Source: Candidatus Limnocylindrales bacterium (GTDB lineage Bacteria > Moduliflexota > Moduliflexia > Moduliflexales > JAUQPW01). Taken from it: a DNA stretch of 41,682 nucleotides. The stretch lies in the NCBI GenBank assembly GCA_035559535.1, contig DATMBG010000012.1, positions 248,001-289,682 on the forward strand, written 5' to 3'. Positions 2 to 40,065 of this stretch are shown piece by piece; the first letter of the stretch is position 1, and each line of letters opens with the position of its first letter. The translations under genes were made by a program, and so were the position numbers. Below the pieces are notes generated by a model. It searched no databases and was not told the origin of the DNA. It worked only from the letters and a program-made list of their open reading frames with translations.

Positions 2-79
2 GGATTGGCGGTTATTGTTTATCTTTTTCGAAACAAAAATACGGTCAACGACGATGAGTTTAGCTTAATGCGCTGGTAA
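2..79 (+). CDS. nuoK: NADH-quinone oxidoreductase subunit K, C-terminal fragment (5'-partial)
   Basis: Manual translation from base 2 gives GLAVIVYLFRNKNTVNDDEFSLMRW*, the typical NuoK C-terminus; lies directly upstream of nuoL. Confidence 0.9.
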   Translation, partial: GLAVIVYLFRNKNTVNDDEFSLMRW

Positions 80-10997: not shown

Positions 10998-11471
10998 TTA
11001 AATCGCCATGATCGTAACCTGTTGGCCCCGATAGGTAGTACGCTCAACCACGGACCATCCGAGGCGAGTATAAAAACTTTCCTTATCTGTAGTAAAAAGA
11101 TACAGAGGTTGAATCCCCAGGATTCTGACTTCTTCAACAACCCGGTGAACAAGAGCCGAGCCGATTCCACATCTCCGGAATTCAGGAGCAACATAAACAC
11201 TGGCCAGCCAGGGAGACAGGTTCATCCGGGTATCCATATCATGGGGAATTAAACTGGCAGATCCCAGTAAAGTTTCTCCCCGCAAAGCGATAAAGGTCGT
11301 TGGAATTTGCCCAGGACCCCCATGACTCTGAAGCCAGGCAATACGCCGTTCTACAGAGTCTCCGGGATTGAGATAGCTCCACTCCCTATAATGCCAGCGG
11401 GCAAGTATCGGAATGTATTCCGGACGGTTTACAAGATATTCGATTTGAAAAGGTTGAAGGGATTGACTCAT
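10998..11471 (-). CDS. GNAT family N-acetyltransferase
   Basis: Acetyl-CoA motif A WLASVYVAPEFRRCGIGSALV, and FYTRLGW. Confidence 0.92.
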   Translation of the reverse strand: MSQSLQPFQIEYLVNRPEYIPILARWHYREWSYLNPGDSVERRIAWLQSHGGPGQIPTTFIALRGETLLGSASLIPHDMDTRMNLSPWLASVYVAPEFRRCGIGSALVHRVVEEVRILGIQPLYLFTTDKESFYTRLGWSVVERTTYRGQQVTIMAI

Positions 11472-11501: not shown

Positions 11502-12794
11502 TCAAGTAAGAAAAGGCCTGGGTGGCACATAATAAACACGGGCAGCGGGTACAGAAACCAATTCCATTTCCGGATAACGAAGCGCCGTGAGCTTACCTCC
11601 AAAAACGCATCCCGTATCGATATTAATAGTGCGGTTTATCCATTGAGGTTCTCGAACAGGTGTGTGGCCGTATACAACGAAGGCTTTGCCACGATAATGG
11701 GCGGCCCAATTATAGCGGACAGGTAAACCAAACTCATCGATTTCCCCAGTTGTTTCTCCATATAAGGCAAAATCGCGTACCCGGGGTGAACAACGTCCCT
11801 GCATTAATCTCTTCATTCCGGCATGGGCCACTACCAATCTACCTCCATCCAGGACGTAATGGCTGACCAGGTTATCAAGGAATAAGATAATTTGCTCCTT
11901 GAACTCCGGCGGTTCTAATTCTAACTGGGCCAACGATTCCGCCAACCCATGGGTGATTTGTACATTTCTTCCCTTAAGTTTACGTAGGAGTTTCATATCA
12001 TGGTTTCCAAGTACACAGAGGGCCGTACCAAACTGGACCATGCTCATAACCAGACGAAGAACACCCGGTGTGTTGGGTCCCCGGTCAACCAGATCCCCCA
12101 GGAAGATCGCTTTTCGGCCCTCCGGATGGCTAACTAGATAATAGTCAGAATTTCGGGAATCGTCTGATCGGATCGTTATCTTATAACCCAGTTTCTCAAG
12201 GAGAATAACCAATTCATCGAAACATCCATGTACATCCCCGATAATGTCAAACGGTCCACGTTCATGTTTGAGATTACACCGGAGGGGTCGGCGTTCCACA
12301 ACGGTCGCCTCTACTTCTTCCGGTGTAGAAAAAATATAAATATACCGGAAACCTTCCCGATGTAAACCTTCTAGGGAGAGTTGGAGCTGACGGTAATGTT
12401 GACTGATAACTTGAGGAGTGAGGTTGCGGTCAGGGCGCTGTCGAGCTCTTTCCTGGCATAGTTCTTCTGGAAGGTTGAAAACAATGGCAACCGGTATGTA
12501 ATGATATCTATAAGCCAGATTTAGAAGCGGCCTGCGAGACCTTTCTTGAACATTGGTTGCATCGATAACCGTCAATCTCCCTCTGATAAGCCTCTTTTCT
12601 GCAATAAGGTGAAGGACTTCAAAAGCATCTCGGGTGGCAGCCTGGTTATTTTCATCATCGGAAACCAATGCCCGGCAAAAATCGGATGATAGGACTTCTG
12701 TGGCTTTAAAATGCTTTCGGGCAAAAGTAGATTTGCCGGAGCTTGAAGGCCCTATGAGAACGACCAAAGATAATTCTGGGATTATTAATTTCAC
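11502..12794 (-). CDS. Polynucleotide kinase-phosphatase (Pnkp-like; kinase plus metallophosphoesterase, no ligase domain)
   Basis: P-loop GPSSSGKST, SSDFCR and IDATN; phosphoesterase motifs GDVHG, GDLVDRG, GNHD, HAG, GHTP, IDTGCVFGG; GTG start; 430 aa. Confidence 0.9.
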   Translation of the reverse strand: MKLIIPELSLVVLIGPSSSGKSTFARKHFKATEVLSSDFCRALVSDDENNQAATRDAFEVLHLIAEKRLIRGRLTVIDATNVQERSRRPLLNLAYRYHYIPVAIVFNLPEELCQERARQRPDRNLTPQVISQHYRQLQLSLEGLHREGFRYIYIFSTPEEVEATVVERRPLRCNLKHERGPFDIIGDVHGCFDELVILLEKLGYKITIRSDDSRNSDYYLVSHPEGRKAIFLGDLVDRGPNTPGVLRLVMSMVQFGTALCVLGNHDMKLLRKLKGRNVQITHGLAESLAQLELEPPEFKEQIILFLDNLVSHYVLDGGRLVVAHAGMKRLMQGRCSPRVRDFALYGETTGEIDEFGLPVRYNWAAHYRGKAFVVYGHTPVREPQWINRTINIDTGCVFGGKLTALRYPEMELVSVPAARVYYVPPRPFLT

Positions 12795-13656: not shown

Positions 13657-14919
13657 TTGAATTCCATAAACAGTAACCATCGGATTCTTCTTCTCTTACC
13701 TACCCGAACTTACCGGGCAGGGGCTTTCCTTAAAGCGGCCCGACAATTGGGCATCGAGGTTGTGGTTGGTTCTAATCAGGCGCAGACATTGTCCAGGTAT
13801 CTGCCTGCGAGGTCACTAACCCTTAATTTTCATAAACCTGAGCAGGCAACCCAGAAAATCGTTGAGTTTGCCAGGAAATATCCCTTCGATGCCGTCGTAG
13901 GAGTCGACGATGATTCAGTTCTGCTGGCAGCCATGGCCTCTGCAGCGTTATCCTTACCCCATAATTCCATTGAATCCGTTATAGCGACCCGAAACAAGTA
14001 TCGAATGCGGGAAATTCTGACCAGGGCCGGAGTTCCTTCACCGGATTTTTGGCTTTTCTCCCTGGAGGATCCTCCTACCGATCTGGCTAAAAAAGTCACC
14101 TTCCCCTGTGTGGTCAAACCCGTGTCTCTGTCGGCCAGTCAAGGGGTTATCCGGGCAGATGATGAAAAGCAATTCGTCCAGGCATTCTACCGGCTGGCTT
14201 CTATCCTGGAAAACCCGGAAGTTCGAGATCGCCTGGGTACCGCAGCACGGCAAGTCCTGGTCGAAGGTTTTATTTCCGGACCGGAATTTGCTTTAGAAGG
14301 GCTCCTCATTCAAGGAAAGCTTAAAGTATTGGCCCTTTTCGACAAACCGGATCCCCTGGAAGGCCCGTTCTTCGAGGAAACCCTCTATATCACTCCTTCT
14401 CGATTCCCTACCTCCATTCAAGAAGCCATCGCTGCCTGCACAGCTCAGGCTGCAGAAGCACTTGGATTGAAGGAAGGACCTGTGCATGCGGAGCTTCGGT
14501 ATAACCATCGAGGACCCTGGATAATCGAAATTGCGGCCCGATCCATTGGAGGACTCTGTTCCCGAACACTCCGTTTTGGAACCGGCCTCTCTCTGGAAGA
14601 ACTCATCCTCCGCCATGCTGTAGGACTCGAAATTGAATCCTTCGACCGTGAAAAACCTGCAGCCGGGGTAATGATGTTACCCATTCCCCATGCGGGAATT
14701 CTACAGGCTGTACACGGAAAAGAACGCGCCGCTCAAGTGGAAGGTATTGAGGAAATCGTTATCAGCATTCCTTTGGAACAGGAAGTTCAGCCGCTACCCG
14801 AAGGCTCTAAGTACCTGGGTTTTATCTTTGCCCGGGGTGAATCCCCCGCCTTTGTGGAAGAAGCCCTACGAGAAGCTTACCGACGACTTGAGATTGTAAT
14901 CATACCGCAAAAATATTGA
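13657..14919 (+). CDS. ATP-grasp domain protein (L-amino-acid ligase/carboxylate-amine ligase-like)
   Basis: Motifs RNKYRMR, FPCVVKPVSLSASQGV, LVEGFISGPE, HAELR and IEIAARSIGG; SD AGGAGG before the TTG start. Confidence 0.88.
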   Translation: MNSINSNHRILLLLPTRTYRAGAFLKAARQLGIEVVVGSNQAQTLSRYLPARSLTLNFHKPEQATQKIVEFARKYPFDAVVGVDDDSVLLAAMASAALSLPHNSIESVIATRNKYRMREILTRAGVPSPDFWLFSLEDPPTDLAKKVTFPCVVKPVSLSASQGVIRADDEKQFVQAFYRLASILENPEVRDRLGTAARQVLVEGFISGPEFALEGLLIQGKLKVLALFDKPDPLEGPFFEETLYITPSRFPTSIQEAIAACTAQAAEALGLKEGPVHAELRYNHRGPWIIEIAARSIGGLCSRTLRFGTGLSLEELILRHAVGLEIESFDREKPAAGVMMLPIPHAGILQAVHGKERAAQVEGIEEIVISIPLEQEVQPLPEGSKYLGFIFARGESPAFVEEALREAYRRLEIVIIPQKY

Positions 14920-15202
14920 GCCGGGAGAAGTTGGATAAAACCTCTCCCAGCCGGTTTACCTGCTTTAAGCTCCTCATGTTTATAGAATTTTAAATTCTTA
15001 ACAGATGGACTTTTTCGGTAAAAGGTGATATCCTATTATCTGTAGGGGTTATACCCATTTCGGTTGAATAGGTTGTAGATTACCCATGGAGTGGTTTCTA
15101 TCCTTCTATCCCCTCTAAATTTAAGTCTTTTGTTAAACTGGCATATTGATAGGTCCATTTTTCTGGATAAAATGATATGATCAACTCAATGATGATTTAA
15201 CC

Positions 15203-17428
15203 GTGCAATTGACTTTTCAAACTACGCTGACGGCCCTTCTACTGGTCTTACTGATCCCTACGGTATCGGTAGTAGGCTTTTTCTCCTACTTTAATACGCG
15301 ATTCACCGCAGATGACCTCTCTTCGCAAATCCTCGATCAAACCTTTAAGTTAATCGACCATCAAATTGAGACCTTACTGGATGCCGCATCCAGACAGAGT
15401 CAGATGGATCTGGTCATCCTCAGCAAGAAATTGCTGACTACCAACAATAAGAGGCTTACGGCAAGCGATTTTGGGTGGATCACCGACTACTTCCATGAGA
15501 TGATGAAAATCCACAAACATCTGACCTTCCTCTCCCTGGGTTTAGAAGCTACCGGAGAGTACTGCCATGTGAGGCGTATGCCTAAAGATTGGATGCCTTC
15601 TCGGGCACTCACTGGCAGCAAAGAAGAGGAGATGGTGAAGTTCCAGCCCAGGTTGACCATTCAATATGCTATTCGAGATCCGTCAGGAAAGATCGTAAGG
15701 AGTGAGTTTTATCTTACCGAAGACGGCTCGCGAGAACTTTATTTGGTGGATCCTGATTTTTCCTACGATCCAAGGACGCGACCCTACTACCGGACAGCCC
15801 AGACTGCAGGGACTCCGATCTGGACTCAGGTCTATATTTTTAATGCCCCCCCGGAACCGGGTATTCCCGGCATTACTTACGCTACGCCGGTCCGGGGATC
15901 GGATGGTTCATTGATAGGGGTATTGACCGCTGATCTGGATATTTACAACCTGAGTGAATTCCTCCAAACTCTCAAAATCGGCCAGACCGGTTTTGCTTTT
16001 GTTGTTGAAGTTCGTCCTAAAGGCAATCTGGAGGAAGAACAAAGGCAGGTGATTGCCTATCGTGATCCAAAGAACTTTATAAGGATTGTTCAACGAGGGA
16101 GCCAGCAGGTGCATGAGTTGGTTCCAGGCAAAGAACTCTCCGATCCACTCCTGCGTTCGTTTATGCAAAACCTTCCACCGACAATCGATTTCGACAAAAT
16201 AAAATATCCTGTACCCCTGAGGTTTATCCAGGGTGGGGTGGAATATATGGGGGGTTATCGTCCCTTAGGAGGCAAACACGGCTTAAAGTGGCTGATCTGT
16301 ATCGTAGTTCCCAAGATAGACTTTATGGGACATGCTGATAGAAACAACCTGATTACTGCGAGTATCGGCCTGGTCAGCCTGGTGATTGCAACTCTTCTCA
16401 GTATCTTGCTGTCTATGAGGATCTCCCGGCCACTGAAACAATTGGCCAGAGAAACAGAGGCGATCGGTCAGTTCTACCTTCAGCCCAAGCCCATAGTACG
16501 TACCATTGTGAAAGAGGTGGACCGTCTTACCCTGGCAGTAGAAGAAATGAAGACCAGCCTGAGATCTTTTCAGAAGTATGTCCCTGCAGATTTGGTACGT
16601 TCTTTGGTGGCTTCAGGACAGGAAGCCCGATTGGGAGGGGAACTCAAAACCCTTACCATTTACTTCTCGGATATCGCCAATTTCACATCTATTTCAGAGA
16701 AACTTCCCCCCAACGTATTGGTAGAACTCCTCGGAGAATATCTCAGTGCAATGAGTGAACAAATCCTCGAGAGTGGTGGCACGGTGGATAAATACATGGG
16801 GGATGGAATTTTAGCCTTTTGGGGTGCACCCTACCCAAATCCTCAACATGCCCTCACGGCCTGTATAACCGCCCTCCGCAGTCAAGAAAAACTTAAAGCA
16901 CTGCGTGAGAAGTGGAAAGCCGAAGCCAAGCCACTCCTCTTTTCCAGGATTGGCCTGAACACGGGAGAGTTGATAGTTGGCAACATCGGGGGGGAATCGA
17001 GATTAAATTATACGGTCATTGGGGACCCGGTGAATTTGGCCAGCCGCCTGGAAAATCTGAATAAATATTATAACACAGCGATTCTAATTAGTGAAAGTAC
17101 CTATCTCCTTGTAAACCAGGAGGTTGTGGCCAGGCCTCTGGATTGGGTATCCGTCAAGGGGAAGACAGAAGGGATTTTGATCTATGAATTGCTGGGACTC
17201 AAGGGAGAAGTAAGCCAGAAAGAAGAACGGTTGGTTGAGCTTTACTCTGCAGCGCTTACCGTATACCAAACTCATCACTGGAGCCAGGCTATCGAATTTT
17301 TTCAAAGGGTTATGGAGTTATATCCCAAAGATCTTCCAACTCAGTTAATGATTAAGCGTTGCAAGAACTACCAGCAGAATCCCCCTCTAGAGGATTGGGA
17401 TGGTATCTGGCGGATGCAGAGCAAATAG
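15203..17428 (+). CDS. Membrane class III adenylate cyclase (Cache-like sensor, HAMP, cyclase, TPR tail)
   Basis: TM, YDPRTRPYY Cache-like region, TM and HAMP; catalytic FSDIANFT, DKYMGDG and YTVIGDPVNLASRLE (K/T specificity residues indicate ATP). Confidence 0.9.
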   Translation: MQLTFQTTLTALLLVLLIPTVSVVGFFSYFNTRFTADDLSSQILDQTFKLIDHQIETLLDAASRQSQMDLVILSKKLLTTNNKRLTASDFGWITDYFHEMMKIHKHLTFLSLGLEATGEYCHVRRMPKDWMPSRALTGSKEEEMVKFQPRLTIQYAIRDPSGKIVRSEFYLTEDGSRELYLVDPDFSYDPRTRPYYRTAQTAGTPIWTQVYIFNAPPEPGIPGITYATPVRGSDGSLIGVLTADLDIYNLSEFLQTLKIGQTGFAFVVEVRPKGNLEEEQRQVIAYRDPKNFIRIVQRGSQQVHELVPGKELSDPLLRSFMQNLPPTIDFDKIKYPVPLRFIQGGVEYMGGYRPLGGKHGLKWLICIVVPKIDFMGHADRNNLITASIGLVSLVIATLLSILLSMRISRPLKQLARETEAIGQFYLQPKPIVRTIVKEVDRLTLAVEEMKTSLRSFQKYVPADLVRSLVASGQEARLGGELKTLTIYFSDIANFTSISEKLPPNVLVELLGEYLSAMSEQILESGGTVDKYMGDGILAFWGAPYPNPQHALTACITALRSQEKLKALREKWKAEAKPLLFSRIGLNTGELIVGNIGGESRLNYTVIGDPVNLASRLENLNKYYNTAILISESTYLLVNQEVVARPLDWVSVKGKTEGILIYELLGLKGEVSQKEERLVELYSAALTVYQTHHWSQAIEFFQRVMELYPKDLPTQLMIKRCKNYQQNPPLEDWDGIWRMQSK

Positions 17429-17479
17429 TATTTGTTGCAAAAACGGCTACCTGATCCACATTGATGAAGAAGTAGATAA

Positions 17480-18922
17480 CTAAACCAGAGCAAACTGCTC
17501 TTCCGTAGGCTCGGCTCAGCAATACCAGGGTTCGCTTAAGTAAGGAACGCTGGTGGAAGGGTGTAGATCCAAAGGTTCTCTTGCCGATTCGGGTTGATTT
17601 AAAGCCCTACGGACACAAGACCGAATAGCATCAAAAATCTCCCGTCGGGTTGATTTCTTCATAATACCCTTACGGACGAGTTTAGTTACTTCCTGGTACA
17701 ACTGTTCAACCCGGGGATCACGATGGGTCCAGCGATAGCTTAACCGCTCTACCTCAAAGGGACCTATCAAGGCCCTGACCTCAGGGAGTTCCAGAAGCTT
17801 TGAGCCTTCAGGAATCAATAAGCGAATGGCTAACTGGATAGGAGCTACGTGGTCTATCAAATTCAAGTCATCTAGTAAGGTAAGTAACTCCAGATAACCT
17901 TCCAGGGTCGTCCACGGGGTGAAGGTCACAAAGGTTGGATTAAGGGTTAAATCGTGCTCCTGAAACAACTGCACGACCTTTATGAAATCTTCTCGAGTAT
18001 GGCCTTTGTTCAGGATCGCCAGCACATGATTATCGATGGATTCTACAGCTGTTGTTACAATAGCACAGCCGGTTTCACGCAGGACAGGCAGATAAGAAGC
18101 ATATTTCAGCAGATGCTCCACTTTGATGGTTACGTCGTAGGAAAGATGGGGATATTCCCGATGAAGCGCCTGAACCAGGGGAATGGTATGACCGATACCG
18201 TTGAAAAAATCCGGGTCGCCAAAGGTGATATGCTGAGCACCGGCTTCTACTTGCTGACGAATGTCCTGTAAGACGACCTCTTGTTGTACAATCCGAAATT
18301 TCCCTTGATAAACAGGTACAATAGGGCAATGGCGGCAGAAATGTTTGCAACCTCGACTGGCTTCTACATAACCTACTTTTCGGAAGGTTCCTTTCCCAGT
18401 ATAGAACCGTGCATAATTGGATAGATCTGGAAGATCCCGCCGATCTGGAACCAGAAATTGCTGACGATTTCTTGAGATAACAGGCTCGACCTGCTTTGAA
18501 GGTCGAGGGACCTGAGTTGGGAGACCTCCGGCTTCTGAATACGCCTTTTCGATCTCCCTATAAAACCGTTTACAGAACTGTACCAGACCCTCTTCAAATT
18601 CCCCTCCAAGAATCACCTCTACACCCAATTCACGTAAATACCTTTCGTTCAAGGGAGCATATAACCCATAAAAACAGATGGATACTGTCGGGTTAAGTGC
18701 TTTGATCTTAGCAATGAGTGGAATGGCCAGGCGTGTGGCAGTATGCATTGGAACGTAAAGTGCTACCACATCTGCCGTCTTAAGGGTCTCTTCGGACAAT
18801 TCTTCAACGGCCAGATCCAGGCAGACCACCTCAAATCCCTCACGTCGTAACCATGCAGCCGGTGAGGCAAGACCAAAGGGTTGACGACCCAACTCATAAG
18901 TTGAGATCAAAACAATTTGCAC
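17480..18922 (-). CDS. CUAEP-tail radical SAM selenoprotein (B12-binding-like N-domain plus radical SAM; Sec at TGA 17516-17518), 480 aa
   Basis: CxxxCxxC (RGCKHFCRHC). Reading through the TGA gives EPWYC-U-AEPTEEQFALV-TAG, with a SECIS-like hairpin directly downstream of the TGA. Confidence 0.88.
17481..17518 (-). promoter_or_regulatory. Bacterial SECIS-like element
   Basis: mRNA UGA-GCC-[GAGCC]-UACGGA-[AGAGCA]-GUU-[UGCUCU]-[GGUUU]: 6-bp upper stem, apical loop starting with G 20 nt after the UGA. Confidence 0.7.
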
Positions 18923-19021
18923 CTGCTACCCTGCTGATTGTCGTAACACCTGGAATCGTTTTAATAATTAAAAACAATCGAAGGTGTTCGTACAAGCCCT
19001 TACAATCCTTGAAGATTTCAA

Positions 19022-19609
19022 CTACTTGGAGGGTTGGTAATAGGGATTCTTTCCACCTGCATGGTCCGTTACATCAAGAACCTGTGTAATCTCAGGTACC
19101 TCTTCTTTAATCATAACCTCGATGCCCTGTTTCAAGGTAACGTCCACCATTCCGCATCCCTGGCATCCTCCACCCAGTTGCACATATACCACGTTATCTT
19201 TGATATCTATAAGGGATACATAGCCTCCATGCGCTGCTATGGCAGGGTTAATTCGGGTATCGATCAACTGCTGGATCCTCTGAGCTACAGGTCCTGTAAG
19301 ATGGGCCGGCAGCTTTTTAGGTGCATCTATTTTGAACCCGCTACTCATGATATTATCGACGTAATCCAGGGTTGCGTTTTCTAAATACTGGGCACTTTGA
19401 GGATCAATATAAATATCAAATCCCTCAACGGGTACAACGATATCTTCCGGTTGTTCCTGTCCCTCGACGATAAAAAGCAGACGGTGCTCAACTTTTAAGG
19501 GTGATTTGGCCTCAGCAATGACCCGTAGCCCTTTGATAGGCTTTCCGGTCTTTTGCATCAGCTCAAGCACCTTTTCTCTGGCAACTTCGGTAACTGTTAT
19601 CATAGACAC
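19022..19609 (-). CDS. nfuA: NfuA-like Fe-S cluster carrier (degenerate A-type domain plus NifU domain)
   Basis: N-terminal ITVTEVAREKV...LDYVD...GFKI lacking A-type cysteines; C-terminal INPAIAAHGG...GGCQGC...DVTDHAGG. Confidence 0.85.
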   Translation of the reverse strand: MSMITVTEVAREKVLELMQKTGKPIKGLRVIAEAKSPLKVEHRLLFIVEGQEQPEDIVVPVEGFDIYIDPQSAQYLENATLDYVDNIMSSGFKIDAPKKLPAHLTGPVAQRIQQLIDTRINPAIAAHGGYVSLIDIKDNVVYVQLGGGCQGCGMVDVTLKQGIEVMIKEEVPEITQVLDVTDHAGGKNPYYQPSK

Positions 19610-19739
19610 CTCTTTTCTTTTTACAAAATAGGGAATAAGGTTTATAGAAAATTTAAAATAATTAAGAAACGTTCTTATCTTAGTATAAGACCCTATTACC
19701 GGTTAGCAACTTATTTCTTTACTTCGGTAAAGCAATTTC

Positions 19740-19767: not shown

Positions 19768-19935
19768 GTGCGTAATAATGCAGAAAGAATCCCCTAAGTT
19801 TGGGTAAAAAGGAAACAACTTTTTGTCCATAAGGATACCGGAATCTGAAAGATTCCCGAAAAGGTTTCATAAGGGATCATTCTTTGTGTTCTGGTATCTT
19901 TGCGGTTCTTTGTTGACCGGGAAGGAGATTTATCC

Positions 19936-21942
19936 ATGGTTTTGAACTCAAAAGTATGGCCTGATTATTTACAATCCTCCGAGGATATTTTTGAGGTTAG
20001 AACAAAAGCTCCAGGGCCTCAGGGTATGTTACCCTTTACAGAGGAGATGCTTCGGGGAGAACCCAGCGGTAATTTGTTTGCAGGATCACAGAATGCGGGG
20101 ATGGGCTGGAACCCTGCCCGGGTATTTGGGAAGGATATGCTGATCTTGAGTACAATGGGGGGCCTTCGGGAGAGGGACGGTACCCCGGTTGCCTTGGGTT
20201 ATCATACGGGTCATTGGGAACTTGATTTGCTTGTGAGGGAAGCGGCGAATACCCTCAAGGATCTGGGCTACATCCCATTTGCCACCCATTGTACAGATGT
20301 CTGTGATGGGCGAACCCAGGGGACTGTGGGGATGATGGATAGCCTGGCTTATCGTAATAGTGCGGCTGAGGTTTTGGGGAGATTGATTCGTTCACTACCC
20401 AATCGTAAAGGCCTTATAGGCATCGCAACCTGTGATAAAGGCCTTCCGGCCATGATGATGGCTCTGGCAGCAGCTCGCGATTTACCGGGTATCCTGATTC
20501 CGGGCGGAACGACGCTGCCTCCTATAGCAGGTGAAGATGCCGGTAAAGTCCAATCGATAGGGGTTCGGTTCTCTCACGGTGAATTAACGATCCAGGAAGC
20601 TGCTCAACTGGCTTGCTCTGCCTGTGCCAGTCCGGGAGGAGGATGTCAGTTCTTAGGGACTGCCGCCACTTCCCAGGTTATAGCTGAAGCTTTAGGCATA
20701 GCTTTACCCCACTCTGCCCTTGCTCCCTCAGGTGAACCTGTCTGGTTAAACCTGGCTCGCAGCTCTGCCATGGCACTTCAACAATTGGAGCAGAAAGGCC
20801 TGACACTTCGTCACATTCTGACACCTGCTGCTTTTGAAAATGCTATGGCGGTTCACGCTGCCTTTGGAGGTTCTACCAATCTCTTATTGCATCTTCCTGC
20901 TATCGCTCACTCGGCAGGTGTTAAAAGACCGACTGTGGCGGATTGGGCCCGGATCAATCGAATCGTTCCCCGGATTGTTGATGTACTCCCTAATGGTCCG
21001 ACCAACTATAAGACGGTTCAAGTATTCTTGGCAGGGGCCGTTCCCGAAGTCATGCTCCATTTGCGAGATCTGGGAGTTTTGGATTTGGATTGCCTGACCG
21101 TTTCCGGTATGACAGTTCGAGATAATCTGCTGTGGTGGGAAGAATCCCCCCGTCGGGCGCGATTCCGTGAAATACTGCGTGAACAAGATGGGGTCAATCC
21201 CGATGAGGTCATTATGAGCCCGGCCCGTGCCAAACAACGGGGACTTACCAGCACGGTAGTTTTTCCCCAGGGTAATTTAGCCCCCGAGGGATGCGTAGTT
21301 AAGAGTACTGCCATCGACCCCAGTCTTTGTAAAGATGGAGTCTATGACCATATAGGTCCGGCTCGAGTCTTTGTCTCGGAAGATGATGCCATAGCAGCCG
21401 TTAAATCCACCGGGCCCGATCGTATTCAACCCGGAGATATTATCGTTCTTATCTGTCGCGGTCCCTTAGGGGCAGGTATGCCTGAGACGGCTCAGATTAC
21501 CTTTGCCCTGAAATATACCAAAGCCCTCAAAGGGGTCGCATTGATCACAGACGGGCGATTCTCCGGTTTCTCAAGTGGCCCCTGTATCGGACACGTTGGT
21601 CCAGAAGCCCTGGCAGGAGGACCTATAGGAAAGGTTCTAGATGGAGATATTCTCCACATTCGAATTGATCGCAACCAACTGAACGGCACGATTAACCTGA
21701 TCGGAGAAGCCGGCTCTCCAAAGGAATCCTGGAGTGTCGAAAGGGGTCATCGCATCCTCGCCGAACGTGCTCCCCGCAAAGACTTGCGGCCCGATCCGCA
21801 TTTGCCTCTTGCGGTCAAACTTTTTGCCGAACTCCAATTGTCCGGTGGCGGTACCTGGGGCGGCTGTGTTTATGACGAAGAAGCCATCATTCAAACCTTA
21901 AGGGCAGGAAGGGCAGGTCGAGAAGCCAAACAGAAAAAGTAG
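19936..21942 (+). CDS. YjhG/YagF family D-xylonate dehydratase-like protein (IlvD/Edd family)
   Basis: Motifs [39 protein letters not shown] and TDGRFSG; AAGGAG SD before ATG 19936. Confidence 0.88.
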
Positions 21943-25648: not shown

Positions 25649-26080
25649 TTAAATATCCAGGATAACCTGGGCCCACCATCCTTCAGAGGTTTTTTTAACC
25701 TGAAATTGATGAAGGGTAACGGCTTTTACATCCACCCGGAGATCATGCTTTTCAGGATTTAACTCTTCCCCATATGCTTCTGCTCGAAGCTTAAAACCTT
25801 TCTGAGTTTTTTCGATATGGATGTTATCGATCCGGAGGAGGAGCCTTTGGGCGTCTTTATAATAAATCAATTCCTGTAAAAAATTAAACAACAGCAAGTC
25901 CAGATTCTCCTCTTCCAGCTCGATACGTCGCTTTTCTCCATCTGCAATGGTGCTCAAATCGGCTACCATGACATTCATCGTCGCATCGGCTGCGGCTTTA
26001 AAGAGTTCTTCCGGTGTGGATCCCCACGCCTCAAAGGCTATATCGGCAATAGCTATTTCTTCAAGGTACTTATAAGGCAT
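25649..26080 (-). CDS. Archease
   Basis: YKYLEEIAIADIAFEAWG...ELF..AA, DVKAVTLH and terminal LDI; directly downstream of rtcB. Confidence 0.92.
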   Translation of the reverse strand: MPYKYLEEIAIADIAFEAWGSTPEELFKAAADATMNVMVADLSTIADGEKRRIELEEENLDLLLFNFLQELIYYKDAQRLLLRIDNIHIEKTQKGFKLRAEAYGEELNPEKHDLRVDVKAVTLHQFQVKKTSEGWWAQVILDI

Positions 26081-26193
26081 TTTGAATCTTTTGTGAGGGA
26101 ACTTCCCTTAAAAGAACCTTACCTCTTCTTTCCTGTTCTTTCCTGCAACTGCAGGAGAAAGGAGGAAAGACTTTTTATCTGAAGGGTATAAAG

Positions 26194-27651
26194 TTAACCT
26201 TTTACATTTCCGATGGGGATGAATCGAGCCACGCGTCGACTGATTCCGGCTCGTTCGGTAGCTTCAACCACCTGATCCACATTTTTATAAGCTCCTCCGG
26301 CTTCTTCGGCCAATCCGGCAAACGAAACACTCCGAACATAGATTCCCCGTTGGGCCATCTCTTCTTGAAGTTTTTTACCCTGAAATTGCTTTTTAGCTTT
26401 CGTACGGCTCATGGTACGCCCGCTTCCATGCGCCGTGCTGAAAAAAGTCTGAATGCCACTTTCCACACCGGCTAACAAATAGGAGCCGGTTTCCATACTT
26501 CCTCCAATAATGACGGGTTGCCCAAACTTTTTATAAATATCTGGAATCCCTTCCATATCAGGACCAAAGGCTCGAGTGGCTCCCTTTCGGTGAACCAATA
26601 CGTTTCGCACCTCCCCATTAATTTCATATTTCTCTAATTTAGCCGTGTTGTGAGCTACATCATAGACCATATGCATACCTAAATCTTCAGGGCTTCGATG
26701 AAGAACGTCTGAAAATACTTCTCGAATTCGATGGAGAATCACCTGACGATTCGCAAAGGAAAGGTTGATGGCACATTTCATGGCGGCAAAGTAATCCTGC
26801 CCTTCCGGGGAATGGAAAGGTGCACAGGCCAGTTCACGATCCAGAATTTTGATCTTATATTTGCTTTCCATGACCTTCAAAAAGGCCTGAAGGTAATCGG
26901 TAGCTACCTGATGCCCGAAGCCCCGGGAACCACAATGAAACATGATGACCACCTGATTGGGGATGGTAATTCCAAAGGCTTTAGCCAGCTCCGGGTCAAA
27001 GATATATTCGGGCTTGGCCACCTGAATTTCCAGGTAGTGGTTTCCGGAACCCAAAGTTCCTACCTGATCTTTCCCCCGCTCGATGGCTTTCTTACTGATT
27101 TTTGAGGCATCAGCTCCCTGGATGCACCCATTTTCCTCGGTTCTGGTTAAATCTTCTGCCCATCCTAGGTTATTTTTTATACACCACCGGGCTCCGGTCT
27201 CTATCACATGGCAAAATTCATCCTGGGAAAGTTTGATAAACCCGGTACACCCCACCCCGGCCGGAACGCGTTTAAATAAGTTATCCACTAAAGCCTGGAG
27301 ATGGGGCTTGACTTCCTCGTAGGTTAGATTGGTAAGGACCAGCCGCATTCCACAATTTACATCAAAACCTATTCCTCCCGGTGAAATCACGCCGGTCTCT
27401 GCATCCATCGCCGCCACCCCCCCAATGGGAAAACCATAACCCCAGTGGGCATCGGGCATACAGTAAGCATAGTTAAGGATACCCGGTAGCGTAGCAACGT
27501 TGGTAATCTGGTCAAAAACCCCTTCATCCATAGAAGTTAAGAGTTCTTCGGTGGCATAAATCCGGGCAGGAACCCGCATTCCTTCTTTATAGGAAGGTGG
27601 TATTTCCCAGATGGTGTCCGAAATTTTTTTGATAAATTCGGGAATCGCCAT
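26194..27651 (-). CDS. rtcB: RNA-splicing/repair ligase RtcB (archease-partnered type)
   Basis: Motifs PDAHWGYGFPIGG, DVNCGMR, GSGNHYLE, HCGSRGFGH, HN, HRKGATR and HGSGR; AAGGAG SD. Confidence 0.96.
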   Translation of the reverse strand: MAIPEFIKKISDTIWEIPPSYKEGMRVPARIYATEELLTSMDEGVFDQITNVATLPGILNYAYCMPDAHWGYGFPIGGVAAMDAETGVISPGGIGFDVNCGMRLVLTNLTYEEVKPHLQALVDNLFKRVPAGVGCTGFIKLSQDEFCHVIETGARWCIKNNLGWAEDLTRTEENGCIQGADASKISKKAIERGKDQVGTLGSGNHYLEIQVAKPEYIFDPELAKAFGITIPNQVVIMFHCGSRGFGHQVATDYLQAFLKVMESKYKIKILDRELACAPFHSPEGQDYFAAMKCAINLSFANRQVILHRIREVFSDVLHRSPEDLGMHMVYDVAHNTAKLEKYEINGEVRNVLVHRKGATRAFGPDMEGIPDIYKKFGQPVIIGGSMETGSYLLAGVESGIQTFFSTAHGSGRTMSRTKAKKQFQGKKLQEEMAQRGIYVRSVSFAGLAEEAGGAYKNVDQVVEATERAGISRRVARFIPIGNVKG

Positions 27652-37634: not shown

Positions 37635-39794
37635 TTATTTTACCGTAACAGGTACTTCCAGAGTCTGTCGGGTATATTGATGGAACCAGATTTGGTTGCC
37701 TGAGAGGAGGTCCCATTTAAGTAGGTAGCGACCGCTTGTTTCAGGAGCTGTAAGCCGGGCCTGGATGGTTATTTCTTGTAAAGGAAGTAAATCGTGAGGA
37801 AGTAAGGTTCTGGTCCCTTCACATACCAGGGATTCATCTTCTGCACGGAACCATTGATAGGAACATTGAACAGCGTGGGGCCCACTTCGGAACCAGGGAC
37901 TGAAACTGGTATTTTTAAAAGTCAAAGGAATCGTATAAGTTTGTCCGCTTTCCATTTCTTTTGGAGTACCATGATTAATATATTCGACCCGATAAAAGAT
38001 CTCTTCGGCTTTTCTTAAAGGAACTGATTGGTCATAAGATTGGGCCATTTGATCTCCCAAGCTATTCCATAAGCAGTGCCAGTAGTCTGTGGAGGATTCT
38101 AGAAGAATCTGGAGGCTCCGCTCGAGTTCATTCCCTTGTCGGGCCAGTAAGTTCAAAGCCCGGAGAGTATCCCCATTGAAATCTATCTGCCTTTCGAAGC
38201 TCTTTCCGGTGTATTCGGTGAGATGGTTGAGATATTTGACCACAGTCGCATTAAAGTCCCTTTGGCGCTTCAACATAAGCTCACAGAACTGTATGACCTG
38301 GAGATTGAAGAGTTGTTGATTTCGGAGGATATGCTCCAGGTACGCCCGAAGAGGTCGAAAGAGAAGCTTCTTCGCAAATACAATCAACCGACCGAGAAAA
38401 CGCCGATGGGACTTGATCTCATAATTAAAATCAGGAGCCTGGGTTTGTTTCATGGTAGTTACGGCATCCCCCAGCTCATCCGGCAAAGTATGGGATTTCT
38501 CCAACCCAGGGCTTCCTTTTCGATCCTCTGAGAGAAGCTGCCATTTGGTATTTAAAGCTAGAGTCTGATTCCCCAATTTAAGGTTTAAGGGAGGGGGATG
38601 ACTCCAGGGGCCCGGCTCGGTATAATCGGTATCCAGTCGGTACATCCGCTTGAGGGAATTTAAACGGATCTCAATGGGAGTCGTCTCGGCATCTGGATAC
38701 AACGGTTCGTAGGAGGTAAAAACTTTAGCTACAATGCCACATTGTTTACAATCCGAGAGATCATGATTTAAGAGCTTACGCCGGATCCTTTGATAATTTT
38801 CGTTATTCCAAATTTCCAGAGGGGAAGCCTCTTTGACATTACCCATAATATTGGGCATAAAACAGCAGGGGCGTACATTGCCGTCTACATCCACCAGCAT
38901 CTCCTGCCAGGGAGAACGGCAGAAGGGTATGTCTCGAATTCGAGATTCTATAAAAGGTCGATGAATGGTTCGATAGGGATAAGGTACACGGCTTGATGCC
39001 AGTAACGAGGAAACCTGTTCGGTTTCGGCGTTCTGAGAATCTCGCAGTAATTCCTCATCGGTCCAGGCAATATGGCAGAGCTTAATTCCCAACTCATCGG
39101 CTTTCTTCTTGGCGATTCGATAATAATGCTTTTCGACAACCGGATCGAGGGTTTGGTAGAGTTGGACCCCTGTAGGAGCCGTTAAAAGCCTCAAAACGTG
39201 GATCTCCCTGGCTCCAACCTCGTGGGCCAGTTCCACAAAAAGCGGCAGCTCCTGGATATTTTTTTTCATGGCCACAAAGACCAGAGTTATATAGGGTATT
39301 TCGGTTTTCTTCTGTTCTTTATAGGCTTTAATCAGCTTCAGGTTGTTGACGACCCGTTCGAAGTTACTCCCAACCCGGATGGATCGATACGTCTGCGGCG
39401 TGGCCGCATCCATAGACACACTAATATGGGTCAAACCACCAGCCACAATTTTATCGATATATTTATCCGCTGTCAGAAGGTTCGTAGAAACATAACTCTT
39501 GGGGGGTCGGACTTCATTGATAATGTCCAGATAGTACTCCGGATTTTTGGTTGCCAGGATCTCCCCCGCATCGTTCCATCGGATCTCCATGGGATAAGGG
39601 AATATTTGCCGGACACTTTCAAAAACTTCCGGGCTCATATCGTGATGGTTCATGTACTTGGTAAAGCACATGATGCAGTCAATATCACAATCGTTGGTAA
39701 TGGCTACATCCAACGTCAAAGGTTTAGATTCCAATACGATCTTCCTTTGAGCAACTTCTTGCTTGTTAAGAAGTAAATTTTGCTGTCTCAGCAT
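37635..39794 (-). CDS. Radical SAM/SPASM-type protein with a central coiled-coil region and a C-terminal Ig-like domain
   Basis: CDIDCIMC; CRSPW...DGNVRPCC...MGN...CKQC; SHRRFLG...QxxFN repeats; KNT...W...G.Y.LKWDL C-terminal domain. ATG 39794 has an AAGGA SD. Confidence 0.85.
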   Translation of the reverse strand: MLRQQNLLLNKQEVAQRKIVLESKPLTLDVAITNDCDIDCIMCFTKYMNHHDMSPEVFESVRQIFPYPMEIRWNDAGEILATKNPEYYLDIINEVRPPKSYVSTNLLTADKYIDKIVAGGLTHISVSMDAATPQTYRSIRVGSNFERVVNNLKLIKAYKEQKKTEIPYITLVFVAMKKNIQELPLFVELAHEVGAREIHVLRLLTAPTGVQLYQTLDPVVEKHYYRIAKKKADELGIKLCHIAWTDEELLRDSQNAETEQVSSLLASSRVPYPYRTIHRPFIESRIRDIPFCRSPWQEMLVDVDGNVRPCCFMPNIMGNVKEASPLEIWNNENYQRIRRKLLNHDLSDCKQCGIVAKVFTSYEPLYPDAETTPIEIRLNSLKRMYRLDTDYTEPGPWSHPPPLNLKLGNQTLALNTKWQLLSEDRKGSPGLEKSHTLPDELGDAVTTMKQTQAPDFNYEIKSHRRFLGRLIVFAKKLLFRPLRAYLEHILRNQQLFNLQVIQFCELMLKRQRDFNATVVKYLNHLTEYTGKSFERQIDFNGDTLRALNLLARQGNELERSLQILLESSTDYWHCLWNSLGDQMAQSYDQSVPLRKAEEIFYRVEYINHGTPKEMESGQTYTIPLTFKNTSFSPWFRSGPHAVQCSYQWFRAEDESLVCEGTRTLLPHDLLPLQEITIQARLTAPETSGRYLLKWDLLSGNQIWFHQYTRQTLEVPVTVK

Positions 39795-40065
39795 GGGAGA
39801 TCCTTTATATAAAAAGATGATGAACCTTGATAAAGAGATTTTACCTTGAATCAAAGTTATTAATTATCCCTGCTCCTGTCAAGTTTAAAGAGAGAAGATT
39901 TGTGTTATTTTTGATGTTTCTTCTACAAGGATTAAAAAACACTTTAACTTTTTCCTTGCCGGAATCTCAATTCCTGCTTCATACTATAGGTCATGGTAAC
40001 CGGATCTATTTTAGGCCCATGGATTAAAGAAGCATCTGTGAGATTTCTGAAATTTCGATAGAAGA

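Follow-up and report, generated by a model that had tools for sequence, protein, structure and literature searches.

The stretch of DNA analyzed here, hereafter the window, comprises 41,682 nucleotides from Candidatus Limnocylindrales bacterium (assembly GCA_035559535.1, contig DATMBG010000012.1, positions 248,001 to 289,682). Our subject is the set of genes at its positions 13,657 to 19,609, which is centered on a radical S-adenosylmethionine (SAM) selenoprotein and an ATP-grasp protein of the L-amino acid ligase (LAL) type. On the minus strand lie an nfuA-type gene (19609..19022; 195 aa; Pfam Fe-S_biosyn and NifU domains), whose sequence was read directly, a 99 bp spacer (18923-19021) in which a consensus scan found no terminator-like site, and the radical SAM gene (18922..17480; 480 aa including the selenocysteine Sec469). 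The last of these was translated with TGA read as selenocysteine (U) up to the TAG stop at 17480-17482; otherwise, its open reading frame ends at the in-frame TGA of codon 469 (18922..17516, the TGA itself being at 17516-17518). On the plus strand, the LAL gene (13657-14919; 420 aa; Pfam ATP-grasp_4 at 114 bits, ATPgrasp_N at 62 and LAL_C2 at 54) converges upon it, with a gene for an adenylate/guanylate cyclase (15203-17428, plus strand; 741 aa; Pfam Guanylate_cyc and dCache_1) alone in between. The original prediction had described both the co-oriented nfuA placed 99 bp upstream of the Sec-tailed radical SAM gene and the convergent ATP-grasp gene, and the open reading frames, family scans and Pfam domains confirm these arrangements. 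As set out below, comparisons across genomes strongly support the view that the radical SAM and LAL genes constitute one conserved two-enzyme module, which happens to be split in the window.

Several less certain features complete the locus. The nfuA and radical SAM genes are probably borne on one transcript, judging from their spacing and orientation, and two promoter-like sites (19599..19709, minus strand; nine of 12 consensus positions matched in each) precede nfuA, as indicated by a consensus scan only. The spacer holding these sites is shared with a divergent gene for an Fe-S dehydratase of the YjhG/YagF family (19900-21942, plus strand; TIGR03432 at 1043 bits). Right after the LAL stop codon the same kind of scan, which offers weak evidence, points to a hairpin with a 14 bp stem (14919..14952) as a putative terminator between LAL and the cyclase.

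The radical SAM protein belongs to the family NF040546, the ‘CUAEP/CCAEP-tail radical SAM (seleno)protein’, whose model it matches at 631.1 bits with U read as C, above the cut-off of 500; a scan of the genome with this model recovered it at 624.4 bits with one TGA inside the match. Its second-best family is ArsL (NF040542), at 309.2 bits against a cut-off of 450, and all other families remain under 50 bits. In terms of architecture, it displays an N-terminal B12-binding-like domain (29 bits, under the Pfam gathering threshold of 32.1), a Radical_SAM domain (50.6 bits) with the cluster motif CKHFCRHC and, with the TGA translated, a tail of the form EPWYC-U-AEPTEEQFALV that extends 11 codons past the TGA up to the TAG. 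We compared it with the 80 best related loci drawn from species-representative genomes; as related genomes are not independent, all tallies reported here are counts and not probabilities. A tail of the C-[U/C]-A-E-P type is present in all 80 relatives (73 CUAEP, five CCAEP, one CUTEP and one CUSEP). The C192-x3-C196-x2-C199 motif is invariant in the 81 sequences, and the full set of Cys83, Cys192, Cys196, Cys199, Cys286, Cys468 and U/C469 is invariant or nearly so. The family is large, with at least 8000 clusters at 90% identity, all at E ≤ 1e-20 in a protein search, and the database names for these relatives are either ‘radical SAM protein’ or ‘CUAEP/CCAEP-tail...’. The sole paper that we found naming NF040546, a preprint by Haft, terms it uncharacterized and lists it as one of a small number of selenoproteins that contain a CU motif, which the preprint ties to heavy-metal handling (10.1101/2022.07.06.499078). 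Within the window’s own small phylum the gene is found in two of nine genomes, both of one genus, which suggests that it was gained by transfer in this lineage.

Multiple lines of evidence bear on the decoding of the TGA. The window genome (58 contigs, 95.8% complete) encodes one tRNA-Sec along with selA (622 bits), selB (409 bits) and selD. The column of codon 469 holds TGA in 75 of the 80 related loci and a Cys codon in the remaining five. All 76 Sec forms (the window and 75 loci) have a hairpin downstream of the UGA, with an apical A-G-U/G-U at +23..26; in the window, the core of this candidate selenocysteine insertion sequence (SECIS), AGAGC-AGUUU-GCUCU (17487..17501, minus strand), begins 15 nt past the UGA. 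Its stems vary on both sides by lineage (GAAGAGC/GCUCUU, GGGGACC/GGCCCC and GAGGAGC/GCUCCU), with the stem changes paralleling a tail change between TEEQFAL and TGDQLAP. Folded sequence by sequence and set against shuffles, the hairpins show a mean z of -2.4, with 84% falling below -1.5 and the window at -2.1, while the fold of the whole region in the window is unexceptional (z -0.57). The sequences were folded one by one since differences in loop length between lineages displace the 3' register, for which reason RNAalifold on an ungapped 42-nt alignment gave a mere -0.26. The Sec machinery in the genome, the conserved TGA column and the covarying hairpin together make decoding credible, and we take the TGA to be a genuine Sec codon, with selenocysteine incorporation predicted on this basis. 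The selD gene of this genome (G000:C29:76668-77594), which contains one in-frame TGA, is a selenoprotein gene in its own right.

The partner enzyme matches no NCBIfam model at cut-off. By its domain set and its homology to ligases of solved structure it is classified as an L-amino acid ligase, and dipeptide formation is its predicted activity. Among ligases of solved structure BL00235 (3vot) is the closest, at E 1.8e-49 over residues 25-412, followed at some distance by BacD (E 2e-15). The clade is compact, in that its orthologs score above 380 bits on their own profile as against 57 bits for the next ATP-grasp protein. Its signature is the motif R-x-I-G-G-L-C-S-R, whose Cys301 (window numbering) is invariant in all 30 aligned sequences. 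HMMER alignments place it opposite a Ser of BL00235, a His of 30vh and a Met of BacD. By these alignments it would lie two residues past the BacD position that we take to be Trp332, described as the key pocket residue in a review (PMC6920838). The same review states that BL00235 makes Met-Gly and Met-Met, with Met at the N-terminal position (PMC6920838).

The motif is covered by 55 of 58 LAL matches, 51 of which have Cys, whereas the other four have an in-frame TGA exactly at the Cys301 column; of the remaining three matches, L060 was missed by the motif pattern and the other two run off the ends of their contigs. The four TGA-bearing loci (L037, L044, L058 and L084) all derive from Tectomicrobia/Entotheonella records and would read IGGL-U-SR, and on the basis of this conserved Cys/TGA column the Tectomicrobia LAL is suggested to be an ATP-grasp selenoprotein. 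A hairpin is present after the UGA in each of these four loci and is no better than shuffles (z -0.3 to +0.6). A genome with a TGA-bearing LAL (G011, C1:1806763-1807992) also holds a second LAL paralog without the TGA. Fourteen LAL matches were flagged as having internal stops; none of these stops falls at the motif and, barring a TGA at query residue 6 in L113, none is inside the tblastn alignment. Read together, the alignments indicate that both enzymes of the pair carry a Cys/Sec position.

The association between the two genes is apparent both in adjacency and in phyletic patterns. With tblastn, a LAL ortholog (39-96% identity) was found in the fetched flank of 58 of the 80 radical SAM loci, mostly about 100 bp after the radical SAM gene. 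De novo clustering of neighboring open reading frames likewise returned LAL as by far the commonest neighbor, seen in 57 loci, of which 42 have it in the orientation of the radical SAM gene and 15 in the reverse one. Downstream sequence of at least 1500 bp was available in 71 of the 80 loci, and seven of the 22 loci lacking a LAL match have less than this. In two genomes without LAL beside the radical SAM gene (G012 and G013), an ortholog is encoded elsewhere, with scores of 556 and 564 bits where the next ATP-grasp reaches 57. We then surveyed two phylum-wide samples, respectively defined by the phylum of G009 (locus L036, a record of Candidatus Acidiferrales, which we take to be Acidobacteriota) and that of G010 (locus L024, a Latescibacterota record). 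Among the 301 genomes of the former, the radical SAM gene is present in 51 and LAL in 60; 49 have both, two the radical SAM gene only, 11 LAL only and 239 neither. These lists were compared by hand and include two genomes flagged as unpublished (G037, which is LAL-only, and G165, which is yggX-positive); one of the two radical SAM-only matches is weak and partial. Among the 121 genomes of the latter, the two genes occur in an identical set of 23 genomes, with none having just one and 98 having neither. Of the 49 genomes with both genes in the first sample, the two are less than 5 kb apart in 25 but not in the other 24; thus, the association outlives the loss of linkage. The pair is kept through at least six gene orders in both relative orientations and in records naming at least five phyla, being widespread in uncultured Acidobacteriota, Latescibacterota, Tectomicrobia, Methylomirabilota and others. 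Hence, the ATP-grasp clade is associated with this radical SAM family both by neighborhood and by co-occurrence (49 of 51 and 23 of 23 radical SAM-positive genomes), and the earlier proposal that a gene pair had been split in the window is borne out.

In a set of Bryobacterales loci (L059, L070, L072, L085 and L087), a methyltransferase (441-444 aa, TIGR04290-like) with a Solibacter C-terminal domain follows the radical SAM gene in place of LAL, and a divergent ECF sigma/anti-sigma pair precedes it; LAL is found elsewhere in the one genome of this group that was checked. The methyltransferase has conserved Cys residues, but as the five sequences are 68-78% identical this conservation is uninformative.

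The agent of the split is the cyclase. It has a counterpart in just one of the 80 loci (L022, a 94% relative), which matches residues 16-130 alone; in DNA alignments, the stretch 15585-17166 of the window is without a counterpart there. In run X3, a contig about 94% similar to the window has 15583 fused to 15898 and 16043 fused to 17167, pointing to the same gene with internal deletions. The cyclase of the sister lineage (L022 and run X3) has thus suffered two such deletions of about 314 and 1123 bp. Near-identical pieces from run X2, a separate study, include the interior of the cyclase; therefore, the full gene is not an assembly artifact. The cyclase is a genus-specific insert that lies outside the module and is decaying in the sister lineage, and the layout of the window is that of the Latescibacterota type (nfuA, radical SAM, and LAL on the opposing strand) pushed apart by it.

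The neighborhoods of the module are rich in genes for iron–sulfur (Fe-S) clusters and iron. The most frequent is yggX, which encodes a so-called oxidative damage protection protein and is found within 3 kb in 38 of the 80 loci (NF003817 at 123 bits, cut-off 74). An acnA gene is divergent in 25 of 80, all from one Acidiferrales-type lineage. In 17 of 80 an nfuA gene directly precedes the radical SAM gene on the same strand, with one further fragment at a contig end. Genes for sufB, sufS, sufU and an Rrf2 regulator occur in 11 of 80 each. A complete suf operon is upstream of the radical SAM gene in about 10 of 80, and in Latescibacterota the radical SAM gene closes this operon. A further neighbor, DUF169 (PF02596), sits between the radical SAM and LAL genes or adjoins them in about 10-11 of 80 loci (L055, L057, L061, L065, L068, L088 and others); the window genome holds a DUF169 copy, 38% identical, on a separate contig (C42).

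The NfuA-like protein of the window combines a Cys-free A-type N-terminal domain with an Nfu domain bearing CQGC, and at 154 bits it is below the TIGR03341 equivalog cut-off of 269. It is the sole two-domain NfuA of its genome, and full-length NfuA of this type is found in 79 of the 121 genomes of the Latescibacterota sample, of which only 23 carry the pair. Being common without the pair, NfuA was rejected as a dedicated subunit, and the window protein is a housekeeping carrier beside the module. YggX as an obligate third partner was likewise rejected, since it is present in 30 of 51 radical SAM-positive as against 85 of 250 radical SAM-negative genomes (301-genome sample, compared by hand). 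As for low-molecular-weight thiols, gshB is present in the window genome and was not found in four other carriers, and a GCS2-family gene is present in four of these five; gshB was found in none of the 121 genomes of the Latescibacterota sample, which hence affords no contrast between carriers and non-carriers.

Elsewhere in the window, the gene at 11502-12794 (minus strand) encodes a half-size polynucleotide kinase-phosphatase of 430 aa, which covers positions 1-425 of the 851-position Pnkp model (714.7 bits, cut-off 750) with the ligase half missing. RtcB and archease genes are found at 25652-27651 (minus strand). A second, unrelated radical SAM protein of 739 aa with a SPASM domain is encoded at 37638-39854 (minus strand).

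The nearest characterized family to the radical SAM enzyme, ArsL, offers a second and independent line of comparison. As described in two preprints, ArsL cleaves SAM to methylthioadenosine and an aminocarboxypropyl radical, the three Cys of its RCCLKC tail bind As(III), and its product remains held by the protein until it is oxidized or methylated (10.1101/2024.02.01.577332; 10.64898/2026.04.29.721666). A tblastn search of plasmids with the window protein returned 37 records: 36 with RCCLKC-tail/ArsL proteins at 29-34% identity and a single CUAEP protein. It was from these plasmid records that our ArsL sequences were drawn, and eight of the 36 RCCLKC/ArsL loci were inspected. In seven of the eight (L117, L118 and L120-L124), an ATP-grasp gene lies inside the ars cluster. 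The arrangement is CMD-ATP-grasp-ArsR, a few kb from the radical SAM gene, on the plasmids of B. cereus, P. megaterium and P. filamentosa. It is CMD-ATP-grasp-MFS-ArsM-radical SAM on that of A. acidocaldarius, and radical SAM-hypothetical protein-ATP-grasp-MFS-ArsM-GTPase-aquaporin on those of P. agglomerans, P. ananatis and K. pneumoniae. The eighth locus, which is the canonical arsQ-arsL-arsM cluster of P. amygdali, has no ATP-grasp gene. The B. cereus protein is of the LAL type by Pfam, and the three ars-cluster ATP-grasps that we compared are homologous to the window LAL (E 2e-26, 2e-22 and 2e-12). Thus, to judge from these sequences, the combination of an ArsL-superfamily radical SAM enzyme with a LAL recurs where the radical SAM enzyme is known to produce an amino acid. 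This lends an independent parallel, albeit by analogy, to the part of the original prediction in which an ArsL-like enzyme makes an amino acid that the ATP-grasp ligates. It also hints at a ligated form of arsinothricin that is yet to be described; a literature search, which left subscription journals outside, returned no publication that connects such ligases to arsinothricin clusters, its one match being unrelated.

The single CUAEP protein among the plasmid records comes from a cultured organism, Thermomicrobium roseum DSM 5159 (megaplasmid NC_011961.1; L116:8935-10450), and is a distant relative at 39% identity. It is annotated as stopping at the TGA, and read-through gives C-U-AEPLED.... 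The neighboring genes encode a PLP aminotransferase, an MFS transporter and a GNAT protein, and a LAL ortholog was not found on the megaplasmid record, to which the search was confined.

Against this backdrop, we advance the following mechanism for the module. By analogy with ArsL, the radical SAM enzyme would cleave SAM at the C-gamma–S bond and move the 3-amino-3-carboxypropyl group onto a soft atom that the vicinal Cys and Sec of its flexible tail hold. The product would be a methionine-like amino acid (2-amino-4-X-butanoate), tethered to the tail in the manner of the ArsL product. The LAL would then join this amino acid to a second one to yield a dipeptide, and the Cys/Sec of its motif could accept the soft atom from the tail. 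We put the probability of the core of this scheme, namely ArsL-type transfer of the aminocarboxypropyl group to a tail-held soft atom followed by dipeptide formation, at roughly one half. As the tail offers two ligands as opposed to the three of ArsL and arsenic genes are lacking nearby, X may be S, Se or Te, a chalcogen with two-fold coordination, instead of As; this we regard as a tentative assignment that is more doubtful than the core itself. As to physiology, the product might serve in the maintenance of Fe-S clusters or against oxidative or thiophilic stress, or alternatively the Fe-S helpers might service the enzymes; we hold opinion on this proposal to be evenly balanced. A product that protects or supplies Fe-S clusters, were it real, would account for the persistence of the genes next to nfuA, yggX and suf. 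The most elaborate version of the scheme is that the pair is a pathway to a dipeptide of a chalcogen (S, Se or Te) methionine analog. The aminocarboxypropyl group would go to a chalcogen atom bridging the Cys-Sec tail, the tail would act as a swinging arm that passes the tethered amino acid to the ligase Cys/Sec, and the outcome would be either a new low-molecular-weight thiol or selenol or sequestered Se/Te for Fe-S protection or supply. In all its particulars this version is rather unlikely.

A number of observations weigh against this scheme. The radical SAM protein scores below the ArsL cut-off and its tail provides two thiol/selenol ligands instead of three, which makes the ArsL-type cleavage of SAM an extrapolation. 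Cys83 and Cys286, together with the tail, could bind an auxiliary cluster instead. The LALs of the ars clusters are without the motif Cys. On the side of context, the acnA, G6PD and TIG-domain genes are limited to one lineage and may represent inherited synteny, and yggX is only moderately enriched in radical SAM-positive genomes. Further, the Fe-S carriers are tied to the ligase at least as tightly as to the radical SAM enzyme. In eight genomes where the two genes are far apart, NfuA adjoins LAL in seven and YggX does so in one, with neither being within 2.5 kb of the radical SAM gene in any of the eight. In the 11 LAL-only genomes, an NfuA or Nfu-domain gene abuts LAL in eight; one has none, and in two the contig ends at LAL. 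In both sets NfuA follows LAL and not the radical SAM gene, for which the notion that it repairs the radical SAM cluster does not account. The helper role envisaged in the original prediction therefore has to be qualified: nfuA does lie upstream in 17 of 80 loci, but it is not beside the radical SAM gene where the two genes are apart, and this type of NfuA is also common without the pair. Lastly, LAL occurs without the radical SAM gene in 11 of 60 genomes, as against two of 51 for the converse. The radical SAM enzyme thus depends on LAL more than the reverse, LAL does not strictly rely on the radical SAM product, and our data would be consistent with either step coming first.

This last asymmetry is at the root of the alternative that survives best, in which the order is reversed: LAL would make a dipeptide or amide from ordinary amino acids that is useful beside NfuA/YggX, with the radical SAM enzyme as an optional tailoring step, e.g., adding the aminocarboxypropyl group. 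The 11 to two imbalance (with one of the two being a weak, partial match), the retention of an adjoining nfuA at eight of 11 LAL-only loci and the presence of the Fe-S helper with LAL in all eight unlinked genomes are what such an arrangement might leave behind. However, a tethered product needing LAL for its release gives the same asymmetry, and some of the LAL-only genomes are small or fragmentary assemblies (1.2-2.5 Mb). Moreover, in the ArsL clusters the radical SAM enzyme itself makes the amino acid, so that a later-acting ligase is the simpler arrangement. We see the reversed order as unlikely.

A different reading of the conserved cysteines is that the radical SAM enzyme is a canonical 5'-deoxyadenosyl enzyme in which C83, C286, C468 and U469 ligate an auxiliary cluster that is labile or is sacrificed. 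It would insert S or Se in the manner of LipA/MiaB, with NfuA and Suf rebuilding the cluster, just as NfuA rebuilds the auxiliary cluster of LipA. The four invariant Cys/Sec positions outside the radical SAM motif, the nfuA gene directly upstream in 17-18 of 80 loci, the suf operon upstream in about 10 and the weak matches to HMMs of the MiaB/RimO family (E 1e-8 to 1e-4) are in keeping with it. Nevertheless, it is ArsL, at 309 bits against less than 50 for all others, that is the nearest characterized family, and NfuA tracks LAL rather than the radical SAM gene when the two are apart. Removal of the Cys tail of ArsL, furthermore, left its Fe/S content unchanged (10.1101/2024.02.01.577332). On balance, we deem a cluster-sacrificing enzyme improbable.

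The metalloid role envisaged in the original prediction fares worse. Here, the tail would bind As(III) or Sb(III), and an arsinothricin-like amino acid would be ligated for detoxification or as an antibiotic. The homology of the radical SAM protein to ArsL and the pairing of ArsL clusters with LAL-type ligases are compatible with this, and a GNAT acetyltransferase of the window (10998-11471, minus strand) has a weak partial match to ArsN2 (44 bits, cut-off 125). However, this gene recurs in the 94% relative only and is hence no evidence for an arsenic link. Acr3, ArsB, ArsC, ArsD, ArsH, ArsN1, ArsQ, an aquaglyceroporin and a CobW-like GTPase were found in none of the 80 CUAEP loci within 10 kb, nor in the window; an ArsR-like match in one locus and weak methyltransferase matches in three were all that the arsenic scan yielded. 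Together with neighbors such as nfuA, yggX, suf, acnA and DUF169, the two tail ligands in place of three and the failure to find a true ArsL in the 301-genome sample, this renders a metalloid function highly improbable. Finally, the possibility that the two genes are not functionally coupled at all, their adjacency and co-occurrence being inherited synteny and shared ancestry as the many loci from related lineages and the lineage-bound acnA, TIG and DUF7948 neighbors might suggest, is close to refuted by the diversity of gene orders, orientations and phyla, by the unlinked co-occurrence in 24 of 49 genomes and by the exactly coincident presence and absence in the 121 genomes of the second phylum.

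Returning to the proposed two-enzyme pathway, its significance lies partly in the position of ArsL, to our knowledge so far the only radical SAM enzyme bearing the canonical motif that is known to make an aminocarboxypropyl radical. The much larger sister family of ArsL, already cataloged as NF040546, gains from this study: (i) a partner enzyme that appears to be obligate; (ii) a second Cys/Sec site, located in the partner ligase; (iii) a physiological setting among Fe-S and iron genes instead of arsenic genes. It is the LAL partnership, the ligase Cys/Sec site, the Fe-S neighborhood and the ArsL–LAL parallel that are new, and we found no publication on any of them, subscription journals being outside the search. 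The natural Cys-only (CCAEP) variants should be expressible without Sec machinery, which makes the function directly testable. Further, the pairing points to a probable missing ligation step in many arsinothricin-type clusters. If the logic of a radical SAM enzyme plus a LAL holds, it would predict an undescribed arsinothricin dipeptide from the plasmid ArsL clusters of Bacillus, Priestia, Alicyclobacillus, Pantoea and Klebsiella.

In comparison with known systems, the closest counterpart is ArsL, matched at 309 bits over model positions 2-418 of 423 and at 29-34% identity over residues 1-423. The two share the CxxxCxxC motif, a Cys-rich and flexible C-terminal tail and the frequent proximity of a LAL-type ATP-grasp gene. 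They differ in the tail itself, which is C-U/C-A-E-P with two ligands (C468 and U469, usually including one Sec) and a conserved acidic stretch after it rather than RCCLKC, in the two further invariant Cys residues (C83 and C286) noted in the CUAEP family, and in the Fe-S context that takes the place of ars genes. The ArsM of the ArsL system is in effect replaced by LAL, with a methyltransferase after the radical SAM gene only in the five Bryobacterales loci. On the ligase side, BL00235, BacD/YwfE and RizA share the three Pfam domains of the window protein, which forms its own clade marked by the motif Cys; the use of Met by BL00235 at the N-terminal position would fit a methionine-like substrate. 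The NfuA carriers have the two-domain architecture and the Nfu CxxC in common with the window protein, which departs from them in its sub-cut-off TIGR03341 score. Beyond these, vicinal Cys-Cys or Cys-Sec C-terminal tails, to which the CUAEP tail bears a likeness, are also seen in MerA and thioredoxin reductase. The CU motifs of HgcA and the SAO system have the same adjacent Cys-Sec, but in the CUAEP family it is a radical SAM protein that hosts it.

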